Shown here in pieces: positions 5,872-56,800 of a stretch of DNA of 64,000 bases. The translations under genes were made by a program, and so were the position numbers. The notes under the pieces were generated by a model. It did no database searches, had not been told where the DNA came from, and saw only the letters and a program-made list of their open reading frames with translations. Numbering within the stretch: position 1 is the first letter of the stretch; each line of letters opens with the position of its first letter. Source of the stretch: a bacterium. GTDB taxonomy: Bacteria; Krumholzibacteriota; Krumholzibacteriia; LZORAL124-64-63. The stretch spans positions 5,257 to 69,256 of the forward strand of contig JBDRBC010000187.1 in NCBI GenBank assembly GCA_043823125.1. The letters are read 5' to 3'.

Positions 5872-6827
5872 ACTCCCGTGTGTTCGGGAACAACTTCCTT
5901 CCTGCCAACATGATATTGCATCGGCTGTATAACGTTTGGGGCCACCAGGCGGATGTCGCTGGATTTCCAGGTCGTCACTGGTTGTTCACCCGAGGGCGTT
6001 CCGGGTTGTACCACGCGACTCTCGCCGGGATGGTCTGGATCCTCACTACTTGCTGCCCGGCCATCGGCTGTGCTGGTGGACTTCGTGATCTTCAAGACGG
6101 CTGGCTGGTGCCAGTGGCCGCGACAGCCCGCATGCTCGGCGATCGGTCCGGGGATAGTGTCAGCGACCTGCCGGATCGGGGTCTCTGGGTGGCGTGTGGT
6201 CGGTCCAGCCTGTACGGCATGCCGGAACTCCCGTTACGACGACTGGCGCTCGGTGCGCTGTTCCCGCGGTTTGCACTTTCGGCTGCGTGGCAGCGGCTCG
6301 GAGATGATCTCTACCGCGAGGATACCATTCGGGGGCGTTTGGAGGTGGGGAGACACTGGCGCGGGGTGTTGGAGGGAGGATACGACCGGATCGAACTGGC
6401 GGCGGTAAGTAAACGATCTATCCCCCGACTGCAGCTCACCCTGCTGATGCCGTTGACCGGCCGAATCCGATTCGTGTGGACCGTACCGCTTCCGGTCAAC
6501 TCGGAGCCGCCCGTCGAGCGAGAACTGTCCCGCTGGCTGGAACTGCACGGCCGGGGACAACAACTATGCTGGTGCCTGGCGTTGGATCGGTCGGGTATGA
6601 GAGTGCCGGCCTTGCAGTTCGCTGTGTTGGCCAGGGTGGCGAATGGCGTCGGCTTCGGTGTGCGCGCGGAACCGGCCACCGGCAGTTTGGGTGGATCCAC
6701 TGTCTGGCTGCGGGGGGACGGAACCGCTGGGTCCTGGCTGGTGCGAACCTCTCATGTGATGCATCCGGATCTGGGCTTGACCCATCGCTGGTATCTCGCC
6801 TGGGGAAATGTGGGGGCAGCCTGGTGA
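5868..6827 (+). CDS. Hypothetical protein (319 aa), translationally coupled to both neighbours
   Basis: Long ORF in a coding-like high-GC3 frame. TTG start overlaps the upstream stop (TTGA at 5868-5871); its stop overlaps the downstream GTG (GTGA at 6824-6827). No recognisable motifs; the protein ends in ...GAAW. Confidence 0.4.
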   Translation: MNSRVFGNNFLPANMILHRLYNVWGHQADVAGFPGRHWLFTRGRSGLYHATLAGMVWILTTCCPAIGCAGGLRDLQDGWLVPVAATARMLGDRSGDSVSDLPDRGLWVACGRSSLYGMPELPLRRLALGALFPRFALSAAWQRLGDDLYREDTIRGRLEVGRHWRGVLEGGYDRIELAAVSKRSIPRLQLTLLMPLTGRIRFVWTVPLPVNSEPPVERELSRWLELHGRGQQLCWCLALDRSGMRVPALQFAVLARVANGVGFGVRAEPATGSLGGSTVWLRGDGTAGSWLVRTSHVMHPDLGLTHRWYLAWGNVGAAW

Positions 6828-10422: not shown

Positions 10423-11586
10423 ATGCTAGCCAAGAGGATGTCGAGACTGGGGACCGAGACGGCATTCGTCGTGCTGGCGCGCGCCAAGGAACTCGAAGCC
10501 GCCGGCAAAGATGTGGTGCACCTGGAGATCGGGGAACCCGATTTCGATACGCCACCCAATATCATCGCGAAAGCGGTCGAGGCGCTCAACTCAGGCTATA
10601 CCCATTATGGACCGGCCGCCGGCCTCCCGGAAGTGCGTCGGGTGTTTGCCGAGTACATAGCGCGGGATCGTGGCATCGCCATCGGGCCCGAAAACGTTGT
10701 CGTGACGCCTGGCGGCAAGCCGATCATATTTTTCCCGCTGCTGGCCCTGGTGGATCCGGGAGACGAGGTTGTCTACCCCAATCCCGGTTTCCCCATCTAC
10801 GAATCGGTGATCAATTTCCTCGGCGCCAAGGCGGTGCCGTTAAAGCTGGCGGAAGAGCAGAACTTCTCGTTCTCCATCGATGACCTGACCAGTCTGGTGA
10901 GTGATCGCACCCGGTTGCTGATCATCAATTCGCCGCAGAACCCCACCGGCGGCGTACTTTCCGCCGACGATCTGGACGCCATCGCCGAGCTGGCGGTGAA
11001 GCACGACTTCTGGGTCCTGTCCGACGAGATCTACAGCAAGATCGTATACGAGGGCAAACACGAGTCCATCTCCACCCGACCCGGGATGCTGGAACGGACC
11101 ATCATTCTCGAAGGCCATTCCAAGACCTACGCCATGACCGGCTGGCGACTCGGCTACGGTATCATGCCGGCGATACTGGCCGAGGCGGTGGCCAAGTTGC
11201 AGACGAACTGTACCAGTTGTACGGCCGCCTTCACCCAGATCGCTGGTGCCGAGGCGCTCACCGGACCGCAGGACACCGCCCGGGCCATGGTGGCAGAATT
11301 CCGGATCCGCCGCGACTTGCTGGTGGACGGTCTGAACGCCATCGAGGGCATCACTTGCTTGAAGCCGAACGGTGCTTTTTACGTCTTCCCGAACATCAGC
11401 GCCCTCGGTTTGACCAGCAAGGCAGCGGAAACGCGATTGCTGGAGGACTTCGGCGTGGCGGCCTTGGCGGGCACCTCGTTTGGTGCCTTCGGTGAGGGAT
11501 ATCTCCGCTTCAGTTACGCCAACAGCCAGGAGAACATCCGCAAAGCTCTGGAACGGGTGGCCGAATTCGCCGCCGCGGTACGCTAG
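10423..11586 (+). CDS. Pyridoxal-phosphate-dependent aminotransferase, class I (aspartate/aromatic aminotransferase-like)
   Basis: ATG at 10423 preceded by AAGGAG. Protein (MLAKRMSRLGTETAFVVLARAKELEAAGKDVVHLEIGEPDFDTP…NPTGGV…SKTYAMTGWRLGY) matches the class-I aminotransferase fold and the PLP-lysine region. Confidence 0.8.
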   Translation: MLAKRMSRLGTETAFVVLARAKELEAAGKDVVHLEIGEPDFDTPPNIIAKAVEALNSGYTHYGPAAGLPEVRRVFAEYIARDRGIAIGPENVVVTPGGKPIIFFPLLALVDPGDEVVYPNPGFPIYESVINFLGAKAVPLKLAEEQNFSFSIDDLTSLVSDRTRLLIINSPQNPTGGVLSADDLDAIAELAVKHDFWVLSDEIYSKIVYEGKHESISTRPGMLERTIILEGHSKTYAMTGWRLGYGIMPAILAEAVAKLQTNCTSCTAAFTQIAGAEALTGPQDTARAMVAEFRIRRDLLVDGLNAIEGITCLKPNGAFYVFPNISALGLTSKAAETRLLEDFGVAALAGTSFGAFGEGYLRFSYANSQENIRKALERVAEFAAAVR

Positions 11587-11652
11587 GTACAGCATCAGGT
11601 TGTGGAAACGCCGGCCCGTCAGGGCCGGCTTCATTTGCTACCAGAGGTCAGC

Positions 11653-12639
11653 ATGCAGCAATCGAACGAGGTATTAGTATCGCGTCGCATGATCATCGCC
11701 CTGGGTGGAAACGCCATCATCCCGGCCGGGCTCAAGGGGACTTTCGACGAGCAGGTCCAGGTGACGCGCAGTTCCATGGAACAGGTGGCAAGTCTGGCTG
11801 CTGACGGCCATCAGCTCGTGCTGACCCACGGGAACGGTCCGGTGGTGGGCAACATAGTCCTGCGGTGCGAGGCCGGTATGGCTATGCACGGGATCCCGCC
11901 CATGCCGCTCCATGTCTGCGGCGCCGATTCGCAAGGTGGCATCGGCTACATGCTCCAGCAATCCCTGCAGAACAGTCTACACGCTCGTAATCTGCAACGG
12001 CCCGTAGCGTCGCTGATTACCCAGGTGATCGTCTCGGAAGACGATCCGGCATTCCAGACGCCCACCAAACCGATCGGACCGTTCTACAGTGCGGAACAGG
12101 CCAAACGGTTGCGTCAGGAAAACGGCTGGTCCGTCGTCGAGGATGCCAACCGGGGGTACCGCCGGGTGGTGCCGAGTCCCCAGCCCCAGAAGGTCGTGGA
12201 GTGGGAAGCCATCAAGGCCATGACCAAGGCAGGCATCATCACCATCGCGGTGGGTGGGGGCGGCATCCCGGTGACGTGCGATGCCAATGGCGAGTTGCGG
12301 GGGATCGATGCCGTCATTGACAAGGATCGGGCCTCGGCCCTCCTGGGCAGGCTCATCAATGCCGATACCTTCGTGATCATCACCTCCGTGGATCGGGTGT
12401 ATCTCGATTTCGGCAAGCCGGAAGCGAGGCCGCTGTCGGAACTGGACAGCGCCACGGCTGCCCGGTATCTGGAATCAGGTGAATTCCCCACCGGGAGCAT
12501 GGGACCCAAGATCGAATCGGCGCTGGCCTTCCTGGCCGGCGGTGGTCGCGAAGTGATCATCACCGGTCCGGACACGATTCTCGCCGCGTTACGCGGAGAA
12601 GCGGGCACCAGGATCGTGGCGACCACGGCCGCCGACTGA
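11653..12639 (+). CDS. arcC: Carbamate kinase
   Basis: MQQSNEVLVSRRMIIALGGNAI…LVLTHGNGPVVGN…IAVGGGGIPV are carbamate-kinase hallmarks. ATG 11653 with GAGG upstream. Confidence 0.8.
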   Translation: MQQSNEVLVSRRMIIALGGNAIIPAGLKGTFDEQVQVTRSSMEQVASLAADGHQLVLTHGNGPVVGNIVLRCEAGMAMHGIPPMPLHVCGADSQGGIGYMLQQSLQNSLHARNLQRPVASLITQVIVSEDDPAFQTPTKPIGPFYSAEQAKRLRQENGWSVVEDANRGYRRVVPSPQPQKVVEWEAIKAMTKAGIITIAVGGGGIPVTCDANGELRGIDAVIDKDRASALLGRLINADTFVIITSVDRVYLDFGKPEARPLSELDSATAARYLESGEFPTGSMGPKIESALAFLAGGGREVIITGPDTILAALRGEAGTRIVATTAAD

Positions 12640-23388: not shown

Positions 23389-24156
23389 TTGGAATGGGAA
23401 CCGAATGAGCGAGACGCCTGGGTTGCCGACGCCGAGCGCTGGATCATACAGATACCTGGTGTCCGCCAGTGCAAGATCGATCTGGACAACGCGGGCGAGG
23501 TGACCGGGGTCCATGTGGTCACCGGGATGGAGCGCGAACCGCGACACATCGTCCGGGATGTCGAGGGATTGCTCAAGGCCAGGCTCGATTGCAACGTGTA
23601 CTATAAAAAGATCGGCGTGGTTCAAGTCGTTGACAACGGCGTTGAATCAGGGCAAGATCCGTTGGCTTTCACACCCGGAGAATTGGCGGAATTGCCAGAC
23701 GGTCTCGGGGTGGAATTGAACGATGCCGTGTTGCTGGAGGAAGTGGCGCCGCCACGTATCCAGTGCAACGGGGTCGGGGTGTTGACAACGGACACCACCA
23801 TTCGCGCCGAGGTCAATCTCCAGGTGGGACTGGTGGAGGCGCGGGGTATCGCCGAAGGGCCCAATCATGTGGGCGGCGATCTCGGTCTCATCGCCAAGGC
23901 GGCTGTCACGGCCCTGGGCGAATTGCTGGCCGAGCCCGTCCTGCTGCATCTCTCCGAGGTCCGTCTGGAGCAGGCTGCCGGCGAGTCCATCGTGCTGGCC
24001 GCCGTGGAGTTGGTGGAGGGCAGACGTTCCGAGCGGTTGTTCGGGACCTGTCCGGCGGCACACAACCGCCAGCAAGCAGTGGCGTATGCCATACTGGACG
24101 CCCTCAACCGGCGTCTGGCGTTGATGGAATTCAAAACGGGGGAGGACACCGACTGA
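23389..24156 (+). CDS. Hypothetical protein (255 aa) in a lower-GC island
   Basis: TTG start 7 nt after AGGAAGGAG; coding-like frame; no domain recognised. Confidence 0.45.
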   Translation: MEWEPNERDAWVADAERWIIQIPGVRQCKIDLDNAGEVTGVHVVTGMEREPRHIVRDVEGLLKARLDCNVYYKKIGVVQVVDNGVESGQDPLAFTPGELAELPDGLGVELNDAVLLEEVAPPRIQCNGVGVLTTDTTIRAEVNLQVGLVEARGIAEGPNHVGGDLGLIAKAAVTALGELLAEPVLLHLSEVRLEQAAGESIVLAAVELVEGRRSERLFGTCPAAHNRQQAVAYAILDALNRRLALMEFKTGEDTD

Positions 24157-24286
24157 TCCCGTTCTGGTTCGATACGGAACCGGCACATGCTCAAATTACC
24201 GAGCGGAGCTGAACAACTGAGCGGAGCGGCCTCTACTGTCTTTTGTCGGGCAGTAAATACAGAGTTCGGTAAGGAGGTGCTGCTCT

Positions 24287-24331
24287 ATGCTTGATTGGCT
24301 TTTAGGGCTTTTCAATAAGTTTGAGTGGTAA
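24287..24331 (+). CDS. Candidate small protein (14 aa, MLDWLLGLFNKFEW) with a strong Shine-Dalgarno
   Basis: TAAGGAGGTG 7 nt upstream of ATG 24287; TAA at 24329. The leader (aggaggtgctgctct) resembles the leader of the 23389 gene (aggagctgctgctt). Too short for the ORF track. Confidence 0.25.
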   Translation: MLDWLLGLFNKFEW

Positions 24332-24334
24332 TCC

Positions 24335-24364
24335 TTGAGCTTCCCTGCCGGTTCCGCTTATATT
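24335..24364 (+). promoter_or_regulatory. Putative sigma70-type promoter (TTGAGC-18-TATATT) followed by a ~175-nt leader before the HD-GYP gene
   Basis: Read directly from the sequence. A leader this long suggests a 5'-UTR regulatory element, but no known motif was recognised. Confidence 0.3.
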
Positions 24365-24539
24365 TTTCCCGCCTTGGCCGATATCTAAAGCAGTGGAAAG
24401 ATTCGAGGTACGGTACTCCTGTCAGGGAGGAGACGGACCGTTGCCTCTGGTTCAGTACCGCCCGACTGTCGGGTAGGGTAGTGTCGCCAATCGAGCTGCC
24501 GCCGCCCAGGCTTCGCAGGAGGCGAAAGAGGATGATCCC

Positions 24540-25913
24540 GTGAGTTCAGGTTCCAGGCGTCAAAGCGGGTTGTTCTACCTGGTTTACGGCCTGTCACTCG
24601 TGGCCGGCGTTCTCATGTTGGGCTACCTGTTCTGGTACCATCTTCCCCGGGAAATCGGTCATCTCGAAACCGCCGAAGCGTTGCTGCATGGCAACTTCTG
24701 GTCCGTCATCCAGACGTCGGATATCGACTGGTTGGCGCTGGCCCTGTTTTTCCTGTTCCTGGTCTTCGCCGATACCAAGCTCACCGCCGGCGTGGTCGGT
24801 GGCGGCAAGGTGCACTCCTCCAAGTCCATCGTCCTGTCGTTGATCGCGCTGTTCGGCCCGGCCACTGCCGCCTGCATGGAGGCGCTCTCTTCCCTGGTGC
24901 GCGGATTCGTACTGCGCAACATGGAGCCGCGCAAGGCGCTGTTCAACGCATCCATGCTGGCGTTCTCCGCCGGGGCCGCCGGTCTCGTCTACCAGGCCTT
25001 GCCGTGGTCGGAGCAATTCAGCGGTCCCGGGTTCCTGTTCCCGCTCCTGGCGGCGTTGTTCGTCCACTCCGTGGTCAACACCTTGATGATCGCGATCATC
25101 ATGAGCCTGGATGCCAAGGTGCCGATCCAGCAGGTCTACCGGCGGAACTTCAAGTCCACCGGTATGGAGCGTTACCTGGACGCGCCGTTCGCGGCCATCG
25201 TCATCCTGCTGTTTCTGCAGGCCGGCAGCTGGACCTTGTTGATCTACCTGTTCATGATCATGGTGATCAACCGGAGCTTCAAGCTGTACCAGCGCATGCG
25301 GGAAGCGCACATCAACTCCATCGCCGCTCTGACCACCGCCCTGGAGGCGGACGAGCCGTACACCCACGGTCACAGCTACCGGGTTTCCAAGTACGCCATC
25401 CAGGTGGGGCGCGCCATGGGGCTGCCGGATCGTGATCTCGAGGTGCTGGAGTACGGCGGGCTGCTGCACGACATCGGCAAGATCGCCATCTCCAACGACA
25501 TCATCTGCAAGCCGGGTCGGCTGACCGACGATGAATTTTCCACGGTCAAGACCCACCCCACCATCGGCGCCGACATCGTGGAGCAGATCAGTTTTCTGCA
25601 CGAGGCGTCCGATCTGGTGCGGCATCACCATGAACGCCCCGACGGCAAGGGCTACCCGCACGGCCTGCGTAGGGAGGAGATCAGCACCGGCTGCCACATC
25701 CTCAACGCCTGCGACGCCTTCGACGCCATGACCAGCGATCGACCGTACCGCCCCGCCTTCACCCTGGAGAAGGCCATCGAGGAGCTGGTTCGTTTCCGCG
25801 ACACCCAGTTCGATCCCAGGGTGGTGGACACGGTCCTGAAGTTGTATCGTAAGGGCGAATTCAGGATCATCGACACTCTCGAGGGCTTGAATCTCGAGAT
25901 CCGAGTCCGGTAA
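24540..25913 (+). CDS. Membrane-anchored HD-GYP domain protein (putative c-di-GMP phosphodiesterase)
   Basis: N-terminal multi-TM domain. C-terminal HD-GYP signature …HGHSYRVSKYA…GGLLHDIGKIAI…HHERPDGKGYPHGL. GTG 24540 with AAGAGG SD. Confidence 0.75.
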   Translation: MSSGSRRQSGLFYLVYGLSLVAGVLMLGYLFWYHLPREIGHLETAEALLHGNFWSVIQTSDIDWLALALFFLFLVFADTKLTAGVVGGGKVHSSKSIVLSLIALFGPATAACMEALSSLVRGFVLRNMEPRKALFNASMLAFSAGAAGLVYQALPWSEQFSGPGFLFPLLAALFVHSVVNTLMIAIIMSLDAKVPIQQVYRRNFKSTGMERYLDAPFAAIVILLFLQAGSWTLLIYLFMIMVINRSFKLYQRMREAHINSIAALTTALEADEPYTHGHSYRVSKYAIQVGRAMGLPDRDLEVLEYGGLLHDIGKIAISNDIICKPGRLTDDEFSTVKTHPTIGADIVEQISFLHEASDLVRHHHERPDGKGYPHGLRREEISTGCHILNACDAFDAMTSDRPYRPAFTLEKAIEELVRFRDTQFDPRVVDTVLKLYRKGEFRIIDTLEGLNLEIRVR

Positions 25914-25976
25914 TCTACCAGCGACCACCGCCGACGCTTTTCCGACGGAGGCTTTCTCCGCCACCGGGGAGTGAAC

Positions 25977-26990
25977 ATGAAGTATGCCGACAGTGGTGTA
26001 GATATCGATGCCGCCCAGCGGGCGCTGGCCGACGCCAAGCAGAGTGTTCGTTCCACCTGGGACGAGCGGGTGCTGAGTGACGTGGGCGTCTTCGGTGACC
26101 TGTTCCGCCCCGGTCCGGGTGAACCGCTGCTGGTGTCCAGCGTGGATGGCGTTGGCACCAAGGTGAAGGTCGCCTCTCTGGTGGGCCGTTTCGACAGCGT
26201 GGGCCAGGACATCGTCAACCACTGCGTGGACGACATCCTGGTGCAGGGGGCGGAGCCGCTCTTTTTCCTGGACTACTTCGCCACCGCCAAGCTCGAGGAG
26301 GACGTGCTGCCCGCCGTCATCGCGGGGCTGGCCGCCGCCTGCCGCGAGAACGGCTGCGCCCTGCTGGGCGGTGAGACGGCGGAGATGCCCGGTGTCTACG
26401 TACCCGGCGACTTCGACCTGGCGGGTTGTATCGTGGGGCGCGTGGCGGAAGAGCATCTCATCGACGGCTCGGCCATCGAGGCTGGTGACAAGCTGTGGGG
26501 ACTGCCGAGCAGCGGCCTGCACACCAACGGCTACACCCTGGCGCGGACAGTGCTGCTGGAGAAAGCGGGGTTTGCGGTGGGCGATACGCTTGACGGAATG
26601 GACAGCAGCGTGGGCGACGCTCTGCTGGCGGTGCACCGCAGCTACCTGGCCGACATCCGCTCGCTCTGGGAGGCCTGCGGAAGGGATGTAGTACACGGGC
26701 TGGCCCATATCACCGGCGGCGGGTTCTACGACAACGTGCCCAGGATCGTACCCGCGGGGCTGGTGGCGCGCATCGAGACCGCGGCCTGGCCGGTGCCGCG
26801 CCTGTTCTCGCTCATCGGCGAGTTGGGGGAGGTGTCGCCGGAGGAGATGTACCGGGTGTTCAACATGGGCATCGGGATGGTGGTGTTCTTGCCGGCTGAG
26901 GTGGATCCGACGCAGGTGGCGGGATTGAGGGCCGTACCCATCGGTGAAGTGCTGGCCGGTGAGGGGGCGCGGGTGGAGGTGGTGTTGTAG
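25977..26990 (+). CDS. purM: Phosphoribosylformylglycinamidine cyclo-ligase
   Basis: MKYADSGVDIDAAQRAL…VSSVDGVGTKVK…VNHCVDDILVQGAEPLFFLDYFA canonical PurM. ATG 25977 is 8 nt after GGGGAG (GTG 25971 is an alternative start). Confidence 0.9.
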   Translation: MKYADSGVDIDAAQRALADAKQSVRSTWDERVLSDVGVFGDLFRPGPGEPLLVSSVDGVGTKVKVASLVGRFDSVGQDIVNHCVDDILVQGAEPLFFLDYFATAKLEEDVLPAVIAGLAAACRENGCALLGGETAEMPGVYVPGDFDLAGCIVGRVAEEHLIDGSAIEAGDKLWGLPSSGLHTNGYTLARTVLLEKAGFAVGDTLDGMDSSVGDALLAVHRSYLADIRSLWEACGRDVVHGLAHITGGGFYDNVPRIVPAGLVARIETAAWPVPRLFSLIGELGEVSPEEMYRVFNMGIGMVVFLPAEVDPTQVAGLRAVPIGEVLAGEGARVEVVL

Positions 26991-27350
26991 GTTCGTGACC
27001 GGGGCGCCACTCCTGTTTTTCGTCGCTGGCTGAGCAGTCGCGCGTGGTGCTACCGGCGTTTCGTGTTCCCCCCTCGTGACATCCGGCTACTTCATTCTCC
27101 TGATTGTGATTGATCCGGATTATTACATCCTGGACGCATCAGGTGTCTCGTCAAAGGGGCAGAACGATTCACGCCGAGAGAGTGTACCCGTCAACAGGAT
27201 ACCCAGTTACACTTCCCACTCACAACTCCCCACTCTCCTGGGGACAACTCCCGCCAGCGGTCTACAAACTGCTCACCGCCACGGTATCCCGGAGTCCATC
27301 GCCCGGCGCTGCACTCCACGGTTTGCGTTGGCTGCCAGGGGAAGGGAGTC

Positions 27351-31435: not shown

Positions 31436-31953
31436 AATCATTCCGGGGCCCTTTCCCTTACTGCCCATTCTGTCGCACGGTCATGGGACCACAAGAAGAA
31501 TACGGCCGAGAGCGGCCCACCTGTTCCGAATGCGGGTACATCCAGTACTTGAATCCGGCGCCGGCCGCAGCAGTGATCATCCGACGTGGGGAAAAGATCT
31601 GTCTGGTCCAGCGGAAGTATCCGCCGAGACAGGGCATGTGGACCTTGCCGGCCGGTTTCATGGAGTACGATGAGACCATCCAGCAGACAGCCATCCGCGA
31701 GGCCGCCGAGGAGACGAACCTCACGGTAGCCATCACCGAACTCTTCGCCGTTTACACCGGCCGGTTGCCGCCCGATCTGCCCGTCGTGCTCACGGTCTTT
31801 CGGGCCGAGGAACAAACCGGAGATCTACACGCCGGTGATGATGCGGCAGCGGCTGGATTCTTCGACCTGGACCATTTGCCGGGGGAGATCGCCTTCGGGT
31901 CACATCGCAAAGTTCTCGCGGCACTACGTGAGGAAGCAGCCGATCGGGAATAG
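31432..31953 (+). CDS. NUDIX hydrolase with an N-terminal zinc-ribbon
   Basis: CPFC…CSECG zinc ribbon. Nudix box GMWTLPAGFMEYDETIQQTAIREAAEETNL. ATG overlaps the lnt stop (ATGA). Confidence 0.75.
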   Translation: MKSFRGPFPYCPFCRTVMGPQEEYGRERPTCSECGYIQYLNPAPAAAVIIRRGEKICLVQRKYPPRQGMWTLPAGFMEYDETIQQTAIREAAEETNLTVAITELFAVYTGRLPPDLPVVLTVFRAEEQTGDLHAGDDAAAAGFFDLDHLPGEIAFGSHRKVLAALREEAADRE

Positions 31954-31981
31954 GACAGTTCCGGTGGGAGGTCGGAAAACC

Positions 31982-32578
31982 ATGCATCTCGAAGTAATCC
32001 CCGTGGCGGTCCTGCTCTCCGGCAGCGGCCGAACCCTGGAGAATTTCCTCCAGCGGATCGAGGCAGGCAGTCTCCCGATCCGGGTGGTGGCGGTGGTTTC
32101 CAGCAAACCAGGAGTGCGTGGACTCGCCATTGCCGAGGCTGCCGGTATCCCCAACCAGATCTTTCGCCGCAAGGACCACCCCGACAAGGACACCCACAAC
32201 GCCGCCATCAATGCGTGGCTGATGCCGTTTCAACCACGCATGATTCTTCTGGCCGGCTACCTTTGCTACTACATCCGGCCTGACCAATTCGGCGGCCCCA
32301 TCCTCAACATCCACCCAGCCCTGCTACCCAAATACGGCGGCAGAGGTTATTACGGCGACAAGGTTCACGCCGCGGTCCTCGCGGCAGGAGACCAGGAAAG
32401 CGGCTGCACCGTCCACCACGTTGACGACATCTACGACCACGGCAACATCATCGCCCAGCGTAAGGTCCCCGTCCTCCCCGGCGACGACGTCCACACCCTC
32501 GCCGACCGGGTCTTCGCCGCCGAGTGCGAACTCTACCCAGAAGTGATAACCAACCTGGCCCGCTCCCTCACTGACTGA
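31982..32578 (+). CDS. purN: Phosphoribosylglycinamide formyltransferase
   Basis: MHLEVIPVAVLLSGSGRTL…ILLAGYLCYY…NIHPALLPKYGGRGYYG…H… PurN motifs. GGGAGG SD. Confidence 0.85.
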   Translation: MHLEVIPVAVLLSGSGRTLENFLQRIEAGSLPIRVVAVVSSKPGVRGLAIAEAAGIPNQIFRRKDHPDKDTHNAAINAWLMPFQPRMILLAGYLCYYIRPDQFGGPILNIHPALLPKYGGRGYYGDKVHAAVLAAGDQESGCTVHHVDDIYDHGNIIAQRKVPVLPGDDVHTLADRVFAAECELYPEVITNLARSLTD

Positions 32579-32603: not shown

Positions 32604-32699
32604 GAGCGACAACAATCACCCCTGCATACCCCCATCCACTCTCTTAGGCTCCGCGATGCGTTCGCGGATGGGGGAATGCAGGGGCGTTTGTTGTCGCTC
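32604..32699. repeat. Long palindromic element, copy 1: ~32-bp near-perfect inverted-repeat arms (3 mismatches) around a conserved 32-nt core (32636-32667, ccactctcttaggctccgcgatgcgttcgcgg), sitting between convergent purN and nfnB
   Basis: gagcgacaacaatcacccctgcatacccccat…cc-actctcttaggct-ccgcgatgcgttcgcgg-…atgggggaatgcaggggcgtttgttgtcgctc. The core contains an inner hairpin CCGCGA-tgcgt-TCGCGG. The same core (31/32 identical) recurs at 36137-36168 within completely different arms. Confidence 0.6.
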
Positions 32700-32709
32700 T
32701 GGCTACCGT

Positions 32710-34191
32710 CTACTTCTGCGGGGATTCCGGTGAGGAAACCATTTCAGGCTGGGTATGCCCGGTAGTGAGAAAGTGGTGCATGGAAGTAGCGGCGACCCGC
32801 CCAGCGCCCATGGCGAGGATAACGGTAGCGCCACCGGTGACGATATCGCCACCAGCCCAGACGTTATCCAGACAGGTATGCATGGTGTTTTCTTCACGTA
32901 CCAGAATGGTGCCACGCCGGGCGTCGCAGTCGAGTTCGGGGCAGTCGGCTGTGAGCAACGGGTTGGGCCCCTGACCGATGGCCACCACGACAGCATCCAC
33001 GTCAAACACCTTGAACCTGCCCTCGATGGGGACCGGCCGGCGGCGACCGCTGGCGTCCGGTTCACCCAGTTCCATTTCTTGGCACTTGATGCCGACAACG
33101 GCGCCGTTTTCGCCCAGGATCTCGATGGGAGAGTGGAGGAGGTTGAAGTCGATGTACTCCTCTTCGGCGTGATGAATTTCCTCGCTCCGGGCCGGCATCT
33201 CCGCATGGGTGCGCCGGTAGATGAGGTGGACCTTTTCGGGCTGCAGACGCTTGGCCGTGCGAGCCGAGTCCATGGCCACGTTGCCGCCACCGATGACGGC
33301 GATCCGCTTCATGTTCTTGACCGGCGTGTCGGCCCCACCGGGAAACTTGTAGCCGCCCATCAAGTTGACCCGGGTCAGGAATTCGTTGGCGCTGTACACA
33401 CCGTTGAGATTCTCGCCCGGGATGCCGAGGAACCACGGCAGACCGGCGCCGGTGCCGATGAACACGGCATCGAACCGCTCGCGGATGGAATTGAGCGATT
33501 CGGCTTTGCCCACCGGATAGTTCATGACGAACTCGACGCCGAGCTGCTTCAATCCGTCGATCTCCTCCACGAGGATCTTCTTGGGCAGCCTGAATTCCGG
33601 GATGCCGTAGAACAACACGCCGCCCGGCCGGTGCAACGCCTCGAATACGGTCACCGCGTGGCCGCGCTGAGCCAGATCGCTGGCGCAGGTCAAGCCGGCG
33701 GGACCGGAGCCGATGACGGCGACCTTCTTGCCGGTGGGCGGATCGCACCTTGGCAGCACGGTCACATCGTTTTCCATGGCCCAGTCGCCGATGAAGCGTT
33801 CGACCCGACCGATGGCGCCAGGCTCACGCCCCTTGTCCGGCTTGTTGAGCGTGCAGACCAGTTCGCACTGGTCCTCCTGCGGACAGACCCGGCCGCAGAT
33901 GGCGGGCAAGAAGTTCTTCTCCTTGACCTTGCGCAGTGCGCCCTCGAAATCGCCGTCACCCACCAGTTGCATGAAGGCCGGGATGTCGATGCCCACCGGG
34001 CAGCCGGCGCTGCACGGCTCCTTCTTGCACTGGATGCAGCGCCTGGCCTCGCCCTGTGCCTCTTCCCCGGAATAGCCGAGCGGGACCTCGTTGAAGTTGT
34101 CCACGCGATCCTCGGGTTTCTGCTCGCGCATCTTGGTCTTGGTCTTGGACTTGTTGATGTTGCGCTTTGGCTTCTTGGCTGCGTCGGACAT
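32710..34191 (-). CDS. nfnB: NADH-dependent reduced ferredoxin:NADP+ oxidoreductase subunit B (glutamate synthase small-chain-like; SudA/NfnB family)
   Basis: ATG at 34191 (AGGAGA SD) gives MSDAAKKPKRNINKSKTKTKMREQKPEDRVDNFNEVPLGY…RCIQCKKEPCSAGCPV…ICGRVCPQ…VAVIGSGPAGL…IGGGNVAMD, i.e. two Fe-S Cys motifs plus FAD/NAD(P) Rossmann folds. The 5' 294 nt of the track ORF (to 34485) overlaps nfnA in another frame and is not coding. Confidence 0.8.
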   Translation of the reverse strand: MSDAAKKPKRNINKSKTKTKMREQKPEDRVDNFNEVPLGYSGEEAQGEARRCIQCKKEPCSAGCPVGIDIPAFMQLVGDGDFEGALRKVKEKNFLPAICGRVCPQEDQCELVCTLNKPDKGREPGAIGRVERFIGDWAMENDVTVLPRCDPPTGKKVAVIGSGPAGLTCASDLAQRGHAVTVFEALHRPGGVLFYGIPEFRLPKKILVEEIDGLKQLGVEFVMNYPVGKAESLNSIRERFDAVFIGTGAGLPWFLGIPGENLNGVYSANEFLTRVNLMGGYKFPGGADTPVKNMKRIAVIGGGNVAMDSARTAKRLQPEKVHLIYRRTHAEMPARSEEIHHAEEEYIDFNLLHSPIEILGENGAVVGIKCQEMELGEPDASGRRRPVPIEGRFKVFDVDAVVVAIGQGPNPLLTADCPELDCDARRGTILVREENTMHTCLDNVWAGGDIVTGGATVILAMGAGRVAATSMHHFLTTGHTQPEMVSSPESPQK

Positions 34192-34208
34192 GCCGTTCTC
34201 CTGGGCGA

Positions 34209-35075
34209 TCACTCGCCGGAATCGAGTTTGGCCGCGGCCGCATCGAGCTTGCACCGGTGTGAATGCTCGAACGACTTTTTCTCTTCTGGCTGATAAAAAG
34301 AGAGCCGATTGATCAGTTCGTCGAAGTCCACCAGGTGGCCGTCGAACTCGGGTCCCTCCACACAGGCGAAACGGGTCTTGCCGCCCACCGAGACTCGGCA
34401 GGCGCCACACATGCCGGTACCGTCGATCATGATCGGATTGAGCGACGCCTGGGTCGGGATACCGTAGGGACGGGTGGTCTCGCACACGAACTTCATCATG
34501 ATCACCGGACCGATACAGATCACCTCGTCTATCTGTTCACCGCCGTCGATCAGCTCTTTCAAGGCGTGGGTAACCAGACCCTCGCGGCCGTGAGAGCCGT
34601 CGTCGGTGGTGACGATGGTCTGGTCGCATAGCGCGCTGATCTCGTCTTCGAGAATGAGCAACTCCTTGGTACGGGCGCCGATGATGGCGATGACCTTGTT
34701 GCCGGCTTCCTGCAAGGCCTGAACCTCGGGCCAGACCACGGCGTTTCCGATGCCGCCACCGACACAGACCACCGTCTTCCCGGTGGGGATCTCGGTGGGT
34801 TTGCCCAGGGGTCCGGCCAGATCCGTGATCTCGTCGCCCACGGCCAGCTTGGCCAGGTCGGCAGTGGTCTTGCCCACTTCCTGGACCACCAGGGTGATGG
34901 TGCCGGTCTCGACATTCCGATTGGCGATGGTCAACGGGATCCGCTCACCCCACTCACTGACGCGCAGGATGATGAACTGCCCGGCCAGTCCCCGCTCGGC
35001 GATATGCGGCGCCTCGATCTCGTAGAGCACGGTCTGCGGCGCCAGTTCCTTTTTCACGACGATCTTGTTGCCCAC
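34209..35075 (-). CDS. nfnA: NADH-dependent reduced ferredoxin:NADP+ oxidoreductase subunit A (ferredoxin-NADP reductase-like; SudB/NfnA family)
   Basis: GTG (35075) 8 nt after AAGGAG gives (M)GNKIVVKKELAPQTVLYEIEAP…RIPLTIAN…VVCVGGGIGNA…GMCGACRV…FACVEGPEFDGHLVDFDEL (FNR-like with 2Fe-2S Cys motif). The upstream part of the track ORF (to 35339) is R/P-rich and lacks an RBS. Overlaps nfnB by 21 nt. Confidence 0.75.
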   Translation of the reverse strand: MGNKIVVKKELAPQTVLYEIEAPHIAERGLAGQFIILRVSEWGERIPLTIANRNVETGTITLVVQEVGKTTADLAKLAVGDEITDLAGPLGKPTEIPTGKTVVCVGGGIGNAVVWPEVQALQEAGNKVIAIIGARTKELLILEDEISALCDQTIVTTDDGSHGREGLVTHALKELIDGGEQIDEVICIGPVIMMKFVCETTRPYGIPTQASLNPIMIDGTGMCGACRVSVGGKTRFACVEGPEFDGHLVDFDELINRLSFYQPEEKKSFEHSHRCKLDAAAAKLDSGE

Positions 35076-35544
35076 GACGGTGGCTCCTTGTGCTAAGGCG
35101 CTGGCTTGGACGTGGGAATGGGGGGAGTGATCCCACGTGTTGTTACTCGGCGCAAAGGTAAAAAACAAGGCGGGTAAAAACAAAAAAATTAAAGGGCCAA
35201 ACGCCTGCCGGATCGATCGGGACGTCCGGGGGGGACGGCCGTCGTCCGATCTACAGCGCCGCAGCGCCGCCGGTCTCAGGGTTGGCCCTTTTCGAGGCAA
35301 AATGCAATGTCTGCTCGGTCTTGAAGGTAAAGTCAGCAATATGTATGCCTTGGCCGATCAATCTCGGGATTCCGCTGCGAGAAAGCATTCGTCGGTCTCC
35401 AACGGGGCGAGATCGTTCGTGGAGCTGTGAGGAACCGTTCGTTGTCGCCAGTGACCGTCTTGACCAACTCGAGATTCCCCCCTATGGTGTTGGCGAATTG
35501 CAAGCTTGTCGGACAGCAACCATCAACCGTGATCTGGGGCTGAA

Positions 35545-36099
35545 ATGGAGAAATTGATCCACGGGATTTTGCAGACCATCGGCGAGGATCCCGCACGGGA
35601 AGGTCTGATCAAGACCCCCGAGCGGGTAGCTCGAGCTTACGAGTTCCTCACTTCCGGGTACCGGGTCGATGTGGATACTCTCGTGCAGGGCGCCCTGTTC
35701 CAGGCCGAGGGCAGGGAGATGGTGCTCGTCAACGATATCGACTTCTACAGCCTGTGTGAACATCACATGTTGCCGTTCTTCGGCAAGGCGCATGTGGCCT
35801 ACATCCCCAATGATAAGATCGTCGGACTCTCCAAGATCGCCCGGGTGGTGGAAGCGTTCGCCCGGCGGTTGCAGGTCCAGGAGCGGATGACGGTTCAGAT
35901 CGCCGACTGCCTGCAACGGAATCTCGATGCGGCCGGTGTGGCGGTGGTGCTCCACGCTCAGCATCTCTGCATGATGATGCGGGGGATCCAGAAGCAGAAC
36001 AGCTTCGCGGTTACCAGCGAGATGGTGGGAGTGTTTCGGGAGAATGCCAAGACTCGGGGGGAGTTTTTGACCCTCATTCAAGAGAAGGCCTGGAACTGA
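35545..36099 (+). CDS. folE: GTP cyclohydrolase I
   Basis: …[23 protein letters not shown]…[14 protein letters not shown]… canonical FolE. Confidence 0.9.
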
Positions 36100-36112
36100 G
36101 AGTACTTGGGCC

Positions 36113-36192
36113 GTGCGCCTGTGGTGACACACCTGTCCACTCACTTAGGCTCCGCGATGCGTTCGCGGACAGGTGTGTCACCACAGGCGCAC
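36113..36192. repeat. Long palindromic element, copy 2: perfect 24-bp inverted-repeat arms around the same conserved 32-nt core (36137-36168, ccactcacttaggctccgcgatgcgttcgcgg), sitting between convergent folE and trxB
   Basis: gtgcgcctgtggtgacacacctgtcc-actcacttaggct-ccgcgatgcgttcgcgg-acaggtgtgtcaccacaggcgcac. The arms are unrelated to copy 1; the core differs at 1 of 32 positions. Confidence 0.6.
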
Positions 36193-36268
36193 TGCGTTGT
36201 ACCCTGATCGGCGGCTTGGGGATTTCCTGACCACCAACGTGGTGCTCTGATCGGCGGCCGCAGGATTG

Positions 36269-37210
36269 CTACCCGCCCTGGGCTCCTAACCACCGTTCGG
36301 TTTCTATGGCGGACATGCAGCCGGTGCCGGCGGCGGTTATGGCCTGGCGGTAGACGTGGTCCTGGACGTCGCCGCAGGCGAAGACCCCTTCGATGTTGGT
36401 GGCGCTGCTGTCGGGTTTGGTGATGAGGTAGCCGTTTTCATCCATGTCGAGCTGTCCGGCCAGGAACCCCGTGTTGGGGGTGTGGCCGATGGCGATGAAA
36501 CAGCCGGTCACCGGAAGGTCGTGTTCGCTGCCGTCCTGAGTGTCGGTGAGGACGAGATTGTTCAAGAGCCCGTTCTCGTCACCTTCGTACTGCTTGATGA
36601 CCTTGTTCCAGGCGATAGCGATCTTCGGATTTTCGAGAGCACGCTGCTGCATGATCCGTGATCCACGGAGTTCATCCCGACGGTGAATGATGGTGACCTT
36701 GGTGGCGAAGTTGGTGAGGTAGGTCGCCTCCTCGAGGGCCGTGTCGCCTCCGCCCACCACGGCGATTTCCTGGTCGCGGTAGAAGAATCCGTCACAAGTG
36801 GCGCAGGCCGAGAGCCCCTTGCCGTGAAACGACTCCTCGTCGGGAAGGTTCAGCCAGCGCGCGGTGGAGCCGGTGGCGATGATCACGGCCTCGGCCTGGA
36901 GGACCTCGGAATCCGTGGTCACCATGAAGGGGCGTTGGGACAGGTCGACCTGTTGCACCGACTGGGGGAGGATCCTGGTACCGAACCGTTCCGCCTGAGC
37001 ACGCATCCGGTCCATCAGCTCCGGTCCCTGAATACCTTCGGGAAAACCGGGATAGTTCTCGACTTCGGTGGTGATGGTGAGTTGGCCGCCTGGCTGGCTG
37101 CCCTCGCACAGCACGTTGGATATATTGGCCCGGCCGAGATAGATGGCCGCCGTATAGCCTGCCGGCCCGGATCCGATGATGATCACTTTCTCGTTGCTGT
37201 TGTTGTTCAT
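36269..37210 (-). CDS. trxB: Thioredoxin-disulfide reductase
   Basis: [16 protein letters not shown]…CATCDGFF…[13 protein letters not shown]… canonical TrxB with the CATC redox motif. Confidence 0.9.
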
Positions 37211-38178: not shown

Positions 38179-38223
38179 TCCAGGAATGGCTCATTGAACT
38201 GATTGGCGAGGGAGCGGACGGTC

Positions 38224-38982
38224 ATGGATACGGTGCTGGCGGTGATTCCGGCTCGTTACGATTCCAGCCGTTTTCCCGGCAAGGCGCTGGCCGATCTCGG
38301 CGGGGCGCCGCTGGTGGTCCGGGTGGCCGAAATGGCGAGCCGGATGCGAGAGGTGGATCGGATTATCGTCGCCACGGACGACAAGCGGATCCAGCAAGCG
38401 GTGGTGGCGGCGGGATTCGACTGCGAGAAAACCGGCAATCACCCCACCGGGACCGACCGGGTTGGCGAAGTGGTGGCCCGGCATCCGGCCGACATCGTCA
38501 TCAACTTGCAGGGTGACGAGCCGTTGCTCGATCCGGCGGACGTTGATCGACTCGTGGTGGCCATGCGCCAAAATCCCGAGGTCGATCTGGGGACCCTGGC
38601 CCATCCGTTCGACAGCCGGGATGAGTGGCTCGATCCCAATAACGTCAAGGTCCTGGTGGACCGGTCCGATCGCGCCCTGTACTTTTCGAGAGCGGCCATA
38701 CCGGGCGCCTTCCCCGGTGCACCAGTGGGTTCGGACAGAGACTCTGGACAGGCTGGTGAACGGCTGGCTTTGCGCCACGTCGGGGTCTACACCTTTCGGG
38801 CTGAGACCTTGAGTCGGATGCTTATCCTGCCGCGATCGCCCCTGGAAAAAGCGGAGGGACTCGAGCAGTTACGCGCCCTGGAAAACGGACTGAAGATCAA
38901 GGTGGTGCGAATAGCGAACCGCCCCATCGGGGTGGACACCGAGGCCGACCTCGAGTCGGTGCGTCGGCTGTGGCAGGCTTGA
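38224..38982 (+). CDS. kdsB: 3-deoxy-manno-octulosonate cytidylyltransferase (CMP-KDO synthetase)
   Basis: [20 protein letters not shown]…NLQGDEPL… canonical KdsB. ATG 38224 after GAGGGAG. Confidence 0.85.
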
Positions 38983-39014
38983 AAGCGTCGCAGCCCGGGA
39001 AGGATGGAACCGGC

Positions 39015-40655
39015 ATGGCCAAGTACGTTTTTGTCACCGGTGGTGTGGTCTCGGCACTCGGCAAGGGAATCGCCAGTGCCTCCCTGGGGTGCCTGCTTAA
39101 GGCGCGGGGGCTGCACGTCATTCTGCAGAAGTTCGATCCCTACCTGAACGTGGACCCGGGCACCATGAGTCCGTACCAGCACGGGGAGGTGTTCGTGCTG
39201 GACGACGGCGCCGAGTGCGATCTCGACCTCGGACACTATGAGCGATTCACGGACACCCAGCTGAGCCAGAACAACAATCTCACCAGCGGCGTGGTCTACG
39301 AGACCATCATCGCCAAGGAGCGCAAGGGCGAGTATCTCGGCCGTACCGTGCAGGTCATCCCGCACGTGACCGACGAGATCAAGCGGCGGATCGTGCTGGC
39401 GGCCGAGGATCCGGCCGTCGACGTGGTGATCACCGAGATCGGCGGCACGGTGGGTGATATCGAATCGTTGCCGTTCATGGAGGCCATCCGGCAGTTCCGT
39501 CTGGAGCGTCCGGTCGCCGACACGGTTTCCGTGCATTTGACCCTGGTGCCGTATATCGAGGCGGCGGGCGAGATCAAGACCAAGCCGACCCAGCATTCGG
39601 TGCGGGAGATTCGCAGCATCGGTATTCAGCCCGACTTCCTCATCTGTCGGGCGCAGGCGGAACTGCCCGCGGACGCGCGGCGCAAGATCGCCCTGTTCTG
39701 CAACTTGCCCCCTGAACATGTCATCGACGGCCAGGACGTGAAATCCATCTACGAGGTGCCGCTCAACTTCCACCATCAGCAGCTCGACGATCTGCTCGTG
39801 GAACGGCTCGGCCTGGAGACCGGGCCGGCCGATCTGCAGGAATGGGAGCGGATGACCCGACTCATTCTCGATCCACCGGACCGGGTGCGGATCGCGGTGG
39901 TCGGGAAATACGTGGAGTTGAAAGACGCCTACAAGAGCATCAACGAATCGTTCGTGCACGCGGGCATCACCAACAGGGTCGGCGTCGACCAGGTCTGGGT
40001 CACCTCGGAAAGTCTCGAGGGGACCGAGGTGGGCGATCAGCGCCTGGCCGAGATCTTTGCCGACTGTCACGGGATTCTCGTGCCCGGAGGATTCGGGGAT
40101 CGCGGTATTCAGGGCAAGATCAACGCGGTACGATATGCTCGCGAAAACAGGATTCCGTATTTCGGCATCTGTCTCGGTCTGCACTGCGCCATGATCGAAT
40201 TCGGTCGCTCTCTGGTCGGTCTCGACATGGCCAACAGCAGTGAATTCGATCCCGACACCCCGCACCCGGTCATCCACCTGATGGCGGAACAGCGGAATGT
40301 GGACGAGATGGGTGGCACCATGCGTCTCGGGGCCTACCCGTGTCACCTCATCCCGGACAGTTTCGCCGCCCACTGTTACGGAGAGACCGAGATCAGCGAG
40401 CGGCATCGGCACCGCTACGAGGTCAACAACCAGTATCGACAGGTTTACGAGGAGGCGGGGATGGTCTTCTCGGGGCTGGCGCCCGACAATTCGCTGGTGG
40501 AGATCCTGGAGTATCCGGACCACCCGTTTTTCATCGCGGTGCAGTTTCATCCCGAACTCAAGTCGCGACCGCACCGGCCGCATCCGTTGTTCCGGGAATT
40601 CGTGGCCGCCGCCGTGGCGCATCAACAGCGGCGTCAGGCGGAAGAGACCAGTTGA
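39015..40655 (+). CDS. pyrG: CTP synthase
   Basis: [19 protein letters not shown]… plus a C-terminal glutamine amidotransferase domain (GICLGLH…). ATG 39015 after GGAAGGA. Confidence 0.9.
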
Positions 40656-40684
40656 CCTCGACCCGCTGGCGAGGAGGATTTGGC

Positions 40685-41590
40685 ATGCCCTCGGTACCAG
40701 GAGATGTTCCCGGCGTTGACGCCGCCCAGTCCGGAAGCAGCGGAACGGCCGGCAGCGCCGCCGCCCCGGTGTCCATCCGGGAGCGTCGGGTCGGGCACGG
40801 GGAACCGTTGTACATCATCGCCGGGCCGTGCGTCCTCGAGGAAGATCACGACGAGATGCTCGCCCTGGCTGGCTCGCTGGCGATGACCTGTCGCGAGCAC
40901 GACCTGGGGTACTGTTTCAAATCGAGTTATCGCAAGGACAACCGGACCAGCGGCGCCTCCTTCCGGGGACCGGGTCTGGAAGCTGGCCTGCGATTGCTGG
41001 AACGAATCGGCAACGAACACGGCGTGCCGGTCCTGACCGATATTCATCATCCGGCCGAAGCCGCCGCGGTGGCGGAAGTGGCGGATGTGCTGCAAGTGCC
41101 GGCATTCCTCTGTCGCCAGACCTCGCTGCTGGAAGCAGCGGCAAAAACCGGTCGGGTGGTCAACGTGAAGAAGGGGCAGTTTCTGGCCGCCGCCGACATG
41201 CGGCATGCTGCCGGCAAACTACGTGCAGCTGGGTGCGCAGATATTCTGTTCACCGAACGTGGCGCTTGTTTCGGTTACCGTGACCTCGTGGTGGACTTCC
41301 GGTCCATCCAGATCATGCGGCAGCTCGGGCACCCGGTCGTTTTCGATGCCACCCATTCGGTCCAGTCCCCGGGCAGCACCGGGGCCGCCACGGGCGGCAA
41401 GCCGGAACTCATCCCGTTACTGGCCCGTTGCGGTGTCGCCGCCGGGGCTGACGCCCTGTTTCTCGAAGTCCATCCCGAGCCGGCGCGCGCCAGGAGTGAC
41501 GCGGCGAGCCAGCTGCCCCTGGCTGCTTTCGCCGCGCTGCTGGACACGATGAGAAAATTCCGTGACCTGTATCTGGAGACCGCGTCATGA
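40685..41590 (+). CDS. kdsA: 3-deoxy-8-phosphooctulonate synthase, with a ~30-aa low-complexity N-terminal extension
   Basis: …LYIIAGPCVLE…GYCFKSSYRKDNRTS…VLTDIHH…KKGQFL…ILFTERG… KdsA/DAHP-synthase-I fold. ATG 40685 is 7 nt after GAGGAGG; the upstream part of the track ORF overlaps pyrG. Confidence 0.85.
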   Translation: MPSVPGDVPGVDAAQSGSSGTAGSAAAPVSIRERRVGHGEPLYIIAGPCVLEEDHDEMLALAGSLAMTCREHDLGYCFKSSYRKDNRTSGASFRGPGLEAGLRLLERIGNEHGVPVLTDIHHPAEAAAVAEVADVLQVPAFLCRQTSLLEAAAKTGRVVNVKKGQFLAAADMRHAAGKLRAAGCADILFTERGACFGYRDLVVDFRSIQIMRQLGHPVVFDATHSVQSPGSTGAATGGKPELIPLLARCGVAAGADALFLEVHPEPARARSDAASQLPLAAFAALLDTMRKFRDLYLETAS

Positions 41591-56705: not shown

Positions 56706-56746
56706 AACCGCGAAAAAAATGACGGCGGAGCTAGGTGGCTCCGCCG
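56706..56746 (-). terminator. Putative Rho-independent terminator for the minus-strand PKD lipoprotein gene (hairpin cggcggagc-tagg-tggctccgccg followed on the minus strand by a T7 run)
   Basis: Plus strand reads gaaaaaaatgacggcggagctaggtggctccgccg, so on the minus strand the hairpin is followed by tcatttttttc. Confidence 0.4.
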
Positions 56747-56800
56747 ATTACGCATACCCGATATCCTGCGAAAACTTTCTGCTGAAACAGCGGACCCGAT

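Follow-up and report, generated by a model that had tools for sequence, protein, structure and literature searches.

How two long palindromes can carry almost the same apex on arms of unrelated sequence is the question raised by a 64-kb stretch of DNA from a bacterium of the Krumholzibacteriota (GenBank assembly GCA_043823125.1, contig JBDRBC010000187.1, positions 5,257 to 69,256 of the forward strand), which is referred to here as the window and to which all coordinates apply unless a relative is named. The two palindromes, E1 (copy 1) and E2 (copy 2), lie 3.5 kb apart, each in the spacer of a convergent gene pair. Pfam matches and synteny give the order purN(+), E1, nfnB(-), nfnA(-), followed by folE(+), E2, trxB(-). 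We propose, with a probability of roughly 0.4, that E2 is an ancient hairpin at the 3′ end of folE, the loop of which was recently copied via TCC/GGA microhomology into the neighbouring palindrome E1. A mutational mechanism that is already known accounts for most of the oddity, namely the unrelated and perfect arms; the new part is the transplanted conserved apex.

The arms of E1 are complementary at 91% over 34 nt, with three mismatches (T.T, A.C and A.A on the plus strand), and those of E2 at 97% over 29 nt, of which 26 bp are perfect. In E1 and E2 alike the arms are 28 nt apart. The two elements have a 34-nt block in common, TCC-ACTC[T/A]CTTAGGCTCCGCGATGCGTTCGC-GGA, which comprises the 28-nt loop and the TCC and GGA that bound it and is identical at 33 of 34 positions (Table 1). 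The block contains an inner hairpin with a 7-bp stem and a 5-nt loop, the final GGA of which competes with the closing pairs of the outer stem; in the minimum-free-energy fold the inner hairpin is stacked on the outer stem and a 15-nt 5′ bulge is left. Without the 28 nt, both centres would be perfect palindromes (..ATCC/GGAT.. and ..GTCC/GGAC..). Similarity between the E1 arms and the E2 arms is not significant, and only the middle is common. The initial annotation had located two palindromes between convergent genes and described a conserved apex on unrelated self-complementary arms, and both statements are confirmed by arm measurement, Pfam and synteny. Its common core of 32 nt with 31 identities is real and slightly conservative, the block extending over 34 nt.

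The full elements fold with -64 to -70 kcal/mol on either strand, and their folding z-scores lie between -8 and -11. Besides them, the 64 kb contain just five hairpins with a stem of at least 12 bp, none exceeding 13 bp, and the E1/E2 core pair is the sole high-identity dispersed repeat of the window. Since 100 shuffles of the window yielded no match to the core, and in view of the folding z-scores and the rarity of long-stem hairpins, a chance origin of paired palindromes with a common core is strongly excluded. An artefact of assembly or library preparation would be suggested by the source, a metagenome-assembled genome (MAG), and hairpin-adapter chimeras can give an arm-adapter-arm layout. 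Artefact or chance similarity is nonetheless extremely improbable as an explanation: both elements lie in the interior, between intact genes in synteny, and have short arms; the shuffles gave no chance match, and the independent assembly of a relative, L050, has an orthologous E2 element. The core has only a 7-nt resemblance to the SMRTbell and Nextera adapters, which we take to be no match, and the adapter idea was dropped. Considered as guides or spacers, the arms have no other match, either within the window or across some 600 kb of sequence from relatives.

The folE-trxB spacer of the relatives provides the evidence on the age of E2. In L050, the PtsI and NfnB proteins of which are 80% and 76% identical to those of the window, a counterpart of E2 stands in the same orientation relative to folE, and the two centres are identical at 45 of 56 positions (80%), with an alignment score of 55 compared with a null maximum of 26 in 1000 shuffles. 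The matching parts are the inner arms GTGACACACCTG/CAGGTGTGT and the loop CTCACTTAG...ATGC.TTCG.GG; the outer arms are completely different. Because neutral intergenic DNA is unalignable at 76-80% protein identity, the comparison supports purifying selection on the E2 apex. E2 would then be an old, lineage-specific long hairpin behind folE in an uncultured Krumholzibacteriota-like group, of which the ~56 nt at the centre, made up of the inner arms and the 28-nt loop, are kept by selection and the outer arms are local DNA. An nhmmer profile built from E2, L050 and E1 finds only these three members and no further locus; the E-values (1.4e-16 for the L050 stretch, 5.6e-18 for E2 and 1.9e-9 for E1) are those of profile members and constitute no independent test. 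On its right side E2 adjoins a tandem duplication with a 43-nt period in the trxB 3′ region (36195-36224 and 36238-36267, 77% identical, each with CTGATCGGCGGC), which suggests replication slippage beside the palindrome.

The conservation of the E2 apex in L050 could also be accounted for by a structured RNA family, in which the elements would be 3′ untranslated region elements or processed small RNAs with their function in the conserved loop and with stems selected for pairing only. The stem could serve, for example, as a stalk for processing by RNase III or as a barrier to exonucleases; the copies would have come from ordinary duplication, and compensatory changes would have let the stems drift. 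Read in the folE sense, the mismatches of the L050 arms are G.U pairs, and the folding of this strand is more favourable by 10 kcal/mol; in addition, a second spacer family described below (family B) always has its core within long unrelated arms, suggesting selection for an enclosing helix. We regard this explanation as unlikely. The E1 and E2 arms are unrelated while the cores differ at one position in 34, a combination that gradual divergence cannot yield, and the stems are almost purely Watson-Crick paired with very few G.U pairs. In L050 the structure of the inner hairpin is not kept, and the orientation of the core flips between the relatives L018 and L035. Rfam release 15 at gathering thresholds has no match in the window, and relaxed thresholds brought up nothing specific, only generic microRNA-precursor hairpin models far below their cut-offs. 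The initial annotation's idea of a structured RNA or terminator family, with a conserved loop on freely varying stems, fits copy 2 in so far as its apex is kept at 80% over 56 nt, and departs from it in that the inner arms are conserved too.

Immediately next to the folE stop codon, L004, L010, L013, L018, L035 and L050 have a long hairpin whose loop is large and measures 18-34 nt in the first five. The window core and the cores of L018, L035 and L004 have only the architecture and a 9-nt motif, G[GA]CTCC[GA]CG, in common; alignment to the window core gave p ~0.02 for L018 and 0.06-0.10 for L035 and was not significant for L004, and we treat these elements as apparent analogues of the window core and not as proven homologues. 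Between L018 and L035 the homology of the cores is clear (score 37, p = 0.000), and with respect to folE the two cores face opposite ways. L004 repeats the pattern of the window, one apex on different arms: three of its hairpins (6383-6468, 7058-7121 and 7999-8082) have a common genome-specific apex, GGCTCCAC..GCCA.TCGCC, within 1.7 kb, at intervals of 0.6-0.9 kb, and flank a gene of unknown kind between trxB and folE. Two of the three also have a common 10-bp apical stem, ACCCCGTCGT; the outer arms differ and one hairpin is inverted. In L050, two further large-loop hairpins (6151-6211 and 7805-7860, with the loops CTTGATCGCTTGG... and CACTTGATTCGTG...) have the word CTTGAT(T)CG in common and may represent another genome-specific common loop.

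The history of the E1 spacer is a different one. The nfnB-purN spacers of about 20 relatives hold plain hairpins (12-22-bp stems, 3-13-nt loops) or family B, and the core is absent from all of them; E1 is lineage-specific. The orthologous spacers, to which the initial annotation had looked for the origin of the arms, accordingly divide between the two copies, E2 having its counterpart in L050 and the E1 core having none in these spacers. E1 and E2 have only the 34-nt block in common, and the inner arms conserved between E2 and L050 are missing from E1, from which it follows that a copy of the apex alone reached the second palindrome. As the two blocks differ at only one of 34 positions, the copying into E1 was probably fairly recent. 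Old paralogous cores kept identical by short-patch gene conversion, with arms evolving independently, would be an alternative to recent copying. The copies are close to each other (3.5 kb in the window, 0.6-0.9 kb in L004), and the three mismatches already present in the E1 arms indicate that E1 is not brand new. We consider gene conversion quite improbable, however, since no core-like sequence occurs in the purN-nfnB spacer of any relative and homologous recombination works poorly on a 34-nt tract that has no homology on either side.

Family B, which is absent from the window, where E1 occupies the corresponding spacer, is a conserved core of ~80 nt in the nfnB-purN spacer of relatives and is unrelated to the window core. 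Its first hairpin, H1, consists of a stem, a GGA..GRA internal loop and GCC-AGGAG-GGC, followed by GGAAG, and its second, H2, of a variable 12-bp stem with the loop AGGAG or AGGAA. The core always lies inside near-perfect outer arms of 22-35 bp, the sequence of which is genome-specific (GGGG..core..CCCC). No Rfam model matches family B at threshold, the weak scores being 21.6 bits for raiA-hairpin and 14.5 bits for rsmX; its GGA loops are reminiscent of small RNAs that bind CsrA, or of mimics of the Shine-Dalgarno sequence. Homology of family B with the window core through the word TCGCGGAGCC, which is common with L004, was considered and set aside as unproven (one of 30 comparisons with p < 0.01).

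The arms are best understood from relatives in which one arm reaches into a gene. In L018 the arm at 7931-7950 is made up of the trxB stop and the five codons before it, and a perfect inverted copy of this arm directly adjoins the folE stop; in L039 the folE stop and the final codons of the gene lie within the arm at 8069-8088, the inverted copy being upstream, and in L050 the arm at 7969-7984 likewise includes the folE stop and has its inverted copy upstream. The conserved C-terminus ..PWN*/..AWN* marks the ancestral gene end. Because the gene ends are ancestral, the other arm must be the inverted duplicate, and arms in the relatives thus arise by inverted duplication of flanking gene ends. 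The palindromes of L018 and L039 are nested. L044 has an NfnB 94% identical to that of L018, and at the place of the nested palindromes it has a simple terminator, with a 12-bp stem and a T-run; palindrome turnover is fast, and presence differs between close relatives. An almost perfect 60-bp palindrome with a 28-bp stem and the 4-nt loop AGCT is present in L011 (12051-12110), which means that very long palindromes essentially devoid of a loop occur in the clade without the core. Inverted copying looks like a general mutational habit of the spacers of this clade and not an activity of the core. The copying of flanking DNA as an inverted repeat, which the initial annotation had considered as the mode of insertion, is directly visible in the arms of L018, L039 and L050.

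Template switching makes a perfect stem in a single event, repairs or expands the arms and inverts the spacer (Monttinen & Loytynoja, 2022; PMC8794818; also PMC8604942, PMC13100816 and PMC5941160). The inverted repeats made in this way have near-perfect arms, as do E1 (91%) and E2 (97%), and the relatives add an arm that is an inverted ancestral flank including coding ends, spacer inversion and fast turnover. We infer that the arms of E1 and E2 themselves may have the same origin: a polymerase would briefly copy the nascent or complementary strand, which would give an inverted copy of the flank, homogenised arms and possibly a flipped spacer. E1 and E2 differ from such repeats in also having one non-palindromic loop in common, and because two palindromes carry the same loop an extra step is needed, either mobility or a switch that reaches over 3.5 kb to the donor. 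A donor at that distance lies outside the standard short-range template-switch model.

The extra step that we favour would begin at E1 as a separate long palindrome at the next convergent junction. The nascent strand would stall at the apex of this pre-existing purN-nfnB palindrome, with the centre ..CCCCCATCC/GGATGGGGG.., and pair via TCC with the exposed loop of E2 3.5 kb off; 28 nt would be copied before the strand returned via GGA, leaving E1 with a recent copy of the E2 apex only. The target would be a palindromic, terminator-like hairpin, and no dedicated transposase would be needed. Both the prior presence of a palindrome at E1 and the direction of copying from E2 to E1 are inferred. 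The clustering of copies, two within 3.5 kb in the window and three within 1.7 kb in L004, fits a local process, with weak statistics. For copy 1, with its lack of an orthologue and its TCC/GGA borders, the initial annotation's idea of a core entering the apex of a palindrome is the best reading, the insertion step itself being the conjectural part of it.

Several observations weigh against this proposal. Two copies 3.5 kb apart, in the 64 kb seen, are weak evidence for local copying, and it is unusual for a template switch to reach a donor at this distance through microhomologies of 3 bp. The sequence of the species-level relative from Joint Genome Institute metagenomes (85.6% nucleotide identity) spans 43.6-63.4 kb of the window and includes neither spacer. 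The elements of L018, L035 and L004 escape the nhmmer profile of E2, L050 and E1. The consensus terminator scan calls neither E1 nor E2, no T-run stands beside the stems (flanks TGGCTACCG/GCGGCACTT in E1 and TGCGTTGTA/GGCCCAAGT in E2), and the normal terminators of the source genome have stems of ~9 bp, as exemplified at 56718-56750. The strand test is inconsistent, L050 folding better in the folE sense and E1 and E2 on the minus strand, and the conservation of loop and inner arms in L050 suggests a sequence-specific function that a plain 3′-end hairpin leaves unexplained.

Mobility, the other form of the extra step, would make the 28-34-nt core a miniature REP/IS200-like mobile element, inserted by an enzyme acting in trans into the single-stranded apex of an extruded palindrome 3′ of TCC, so that each target, split in two, would supply the arms. 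Single-stranded DNA is the target of IS200/IS605 elements. The near-identical cores on unrelated arms, the separate L004 core on its own different arms, the sharp and identical TCC and GGA junctions, the tail-plus-hairpin layout of the core and its varying presence between close relatives would all suit an element of this kind. We find it doubtful: only two copies are present in 64 kb, and these are adjacent, with none in 20 kb of the 86%-identical relative; no transposase is seen among the called locus genes of the relatives or in the annotated parts of the window; GTAG is lacking; the exact core is absent from the searched collections; and vertical conservation in L050 extends over the E2 apex and the inner arms alike, unlike the case of a recent insertion. 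A broader version, in which the core would be an ultra-small non-autonomous element or templated module that spreads specifically into the single-stranded apices of intergenic palindromes and carries a putative sequence-specific binding site for a trans-acting factor, is likewise not a probable one. It would suggest a modular 'loop cassette' system for 3′-end hairpins, in a phylum without cultured members, in which each genome has its own core, as L004 does.

The searches for the core covered genomes, viruses and metagenomes. The exact or near-exact core CTTAGGCTCCGCGANNNNNTCGCGG (scan form ACTCNCTTAGGCTCCGCGATGCGTTCGC) has no match in 185,579 species genomes and none in viral contigs, and a single metagenome match, on an AT-rich soil contig and without arms, was rejected as chance. 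By blastn, E1 is unmatched in plasmids and E2 in phages. Over 43.6-63.4 kb the core is found neither in the window nor in the 85.6%-identical relative. The window has no transfer RNA or transfer-messenger RNA genes.

E1 and E2 fit no catalogued family. They resemble bidirectional intrinsic terminators in their position between convergent genes and in a symmetric GC-rich hairpin that folds on both strands, and ordinary terminators with A/T-runs occupy the corresponding spacers in L003, L035 and L044; an intrinsic terminator, however, usually has a stem of ~5-15 bp and a loop of 3-8 nt, as against stems of 34 bp (E1) and 29 bp (E2) and a loop of 28 nt. Termination in both directions, which the initial annotation had expected of both copies, is a prediction backed neither by a T-run nor by the consensus scan. 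Miniature inverted-repeat transposable elements and insertion sequences (ISs) have conserved terminal inverted repeats and a target-site duplication, whereas the outer ends of E1 and E2 are unrelated and only the middle is common. Integron attC sites share with them an imperfect palindrome at the 3′ end of a gene and recognition by structure, but keep the outer R and L boxes and vary the middle, the reverse of the pattern seen here. By eye, neither E1 nor E2 has the attC boxes RYYYAAC or GTTRRRY, no integrase was seen and the attC candidate was dropped. The exclusion of miniature elements, ISs and attC sites in the initial annotation holds. Other candidates dropped by eye were anti-Shine-Dalgarno mimicry by the CU-rich loop (CCUCC is not present), a dif/Xer site (the sequence is GC-rich, in two direct copies 3.5 kb apart) and a CsrA site (no GGA on the plus strand).

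The repetitive extragenic palindromic (REP) sequences of enterobacteria and the bacterial interspersed mosaic elements (BIMEs) built from them are short structured intergenic repeats between convergent genes that are thought to stabilise 3′ ends, and a single-stranded tail with a small hairpin is found in the E1/E2 core as in REPs. REPs differ in their conserved stems, a 5′ GTAG, hundreds of copies and the presence of a gene for the REP-associated tyrosine transposase (RAYT), whereas the big stems of E1 and E2 are unique to each copy and two copies are seen in 64 kb. No GTAG stands in or beside the common block, and no Y1 (RAYT) transposase was seen among the 36 window open reading frames (ORFs) scanned with Pfam or among the called locus genes of the relatives. 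The apex or foot of an intergenic hairpin is also the target of some insertion sequences: IS1397 and ISKpn1 insert into the loops of enterobacterial palindromic units, and group IIC introns are found at terminators. Such elements are kilobase-sized and encode enzymes, whereas the piece in E1 is 28 nt long and non-coding.

As to function, the transcripts of all four converging genes would fold into hairpins of -64 to -70 kcal/mol, which would block read-through or 3′ exonucleases in the manner of the ordinary terminators at the same spacers of relatives. E1 and E2 probably act as 3′-end hairpins, and the conserved loop is presumably a putative contact for a protein or an RNA. If the proposed history is true, the locus is a natural example of template switching that builds or reshapes very long hairpins at convergent junctions, and a functional loop has been moved between hairpins without any transposase. 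It marks a conserved, unannotated element 3′ of folE in a phylum known only from metagenomes, and this element and family B are candidate new regulatory RNAs. Should the core turn out to be scattered over the whole genome, it would be smaller than any mobile element so far described that targets an apex.

Table 1. Coordinates of the genes and hairpin elements discussed (window positions, or positions in the named locus of a relative)
Feature	Position	Strand	Remarks
purN (formyltransferase)	31835-32578	+	Pfam Formyl_trans_N 1.2e-39, synteny; start codon uncertain
E1 left arm	32604-32637	.	34 nt; inverted repeat I1 with 32666-32699
E1 copy of common 34-nt apical block	32635-32668	+	TCC + 28-nt loop + GGA
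E1 inner hairpin	32650-32668	+	TCCGCGA-TGCGT-TCGCGGA; own fold -11.4 kcal/mol
E1 right arm	32666-32699	.	34 nt
nfnB / gltD-like NADPH oxidoreductase	32710-34191	-	Pfam Fer4_20 and Pyr_redox_2; best homologue 81% identical
folE (GTP cyclohydrolase I)	35545-36099	+	Pfam GTP_cyclohydroI 2.8e-76
E2 left arm	36110-36138	.	29 nt; inverted repeat I2 with 36167-36195
E2 apical block kept in L050 (inner arm + loop + inner arm)	36124-36180	+	alignment to L050 7898-7955(-)
E2 copy of common 34-nt apical block	36136-36169	+	pairwise match to E1 block
E2 inner hairpin	36151-36169	+	sequence identical to E1 inner hairpin
E2 right arm	36167-36195	.	29 nt
trxB (thioredoxin reductase)	36269-37210	-	Pfam Pyr_redox_2 1.2e-53; 100% identical to NCBI MAG protein
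Family B	L018 11663-11805		
Family B	L044 ~3697-3835		
Family B	L004 ~11450-11570		
Family B	L039 11460-11585	-	
Family B	L003 ~1845-1990		
Family B	L036 ~11525-11770		two units
Nested/extended palindrome	L018 7931-8094		arms with trxB/folE stop regions
Nested/extended palindrome	L039 7940-8088		arms with trxB/folE stop regions
Nested/extended palindrome	L050 7868-7984		arms with trxB/folE stop regions

Elsewhere in the window, a convergent junction with a 437-nt, comparatively AT-rich spacer (24157-24593) is without a long hairpin. The 704-residue ORF on the minus strand that adjoins it (24594-26708) has no Pfam match, nor have the ORFs at 23389-24156 and 26726-27010. On the minus strand of 38191-41206 the three longest ORFs, of 195, 612 and 190 residues, have no Pfam matches, and relatives carry L27, kdsB and pyrG at this position on the opposite strand. 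The minus-strand ORFs are probably shadow ORFs of plus-strand genes, and because of them calls based on the longest ORF are unreliable in this window of 62% GC. The ordinary terminator between metK and a PKD gene at 56718-56750 has its counterpart at 13044-13077 of L047, the 86%-identical relative; the 9-10-bp stem CGGCGGAGC/GCTCCGCCG is conserved between the two and the loop is replaced (TAGGTG versus AACT). Around the two palindromes, Krumholzibacteriota-type MAG relatives with NfnB proteins 74-81% identical to that of the window keep the same gene order, with trxB, nfnA and nfnB pointing one way and folE and purN the other in the succession trxB, folE, nfnA, nfnB, purN.

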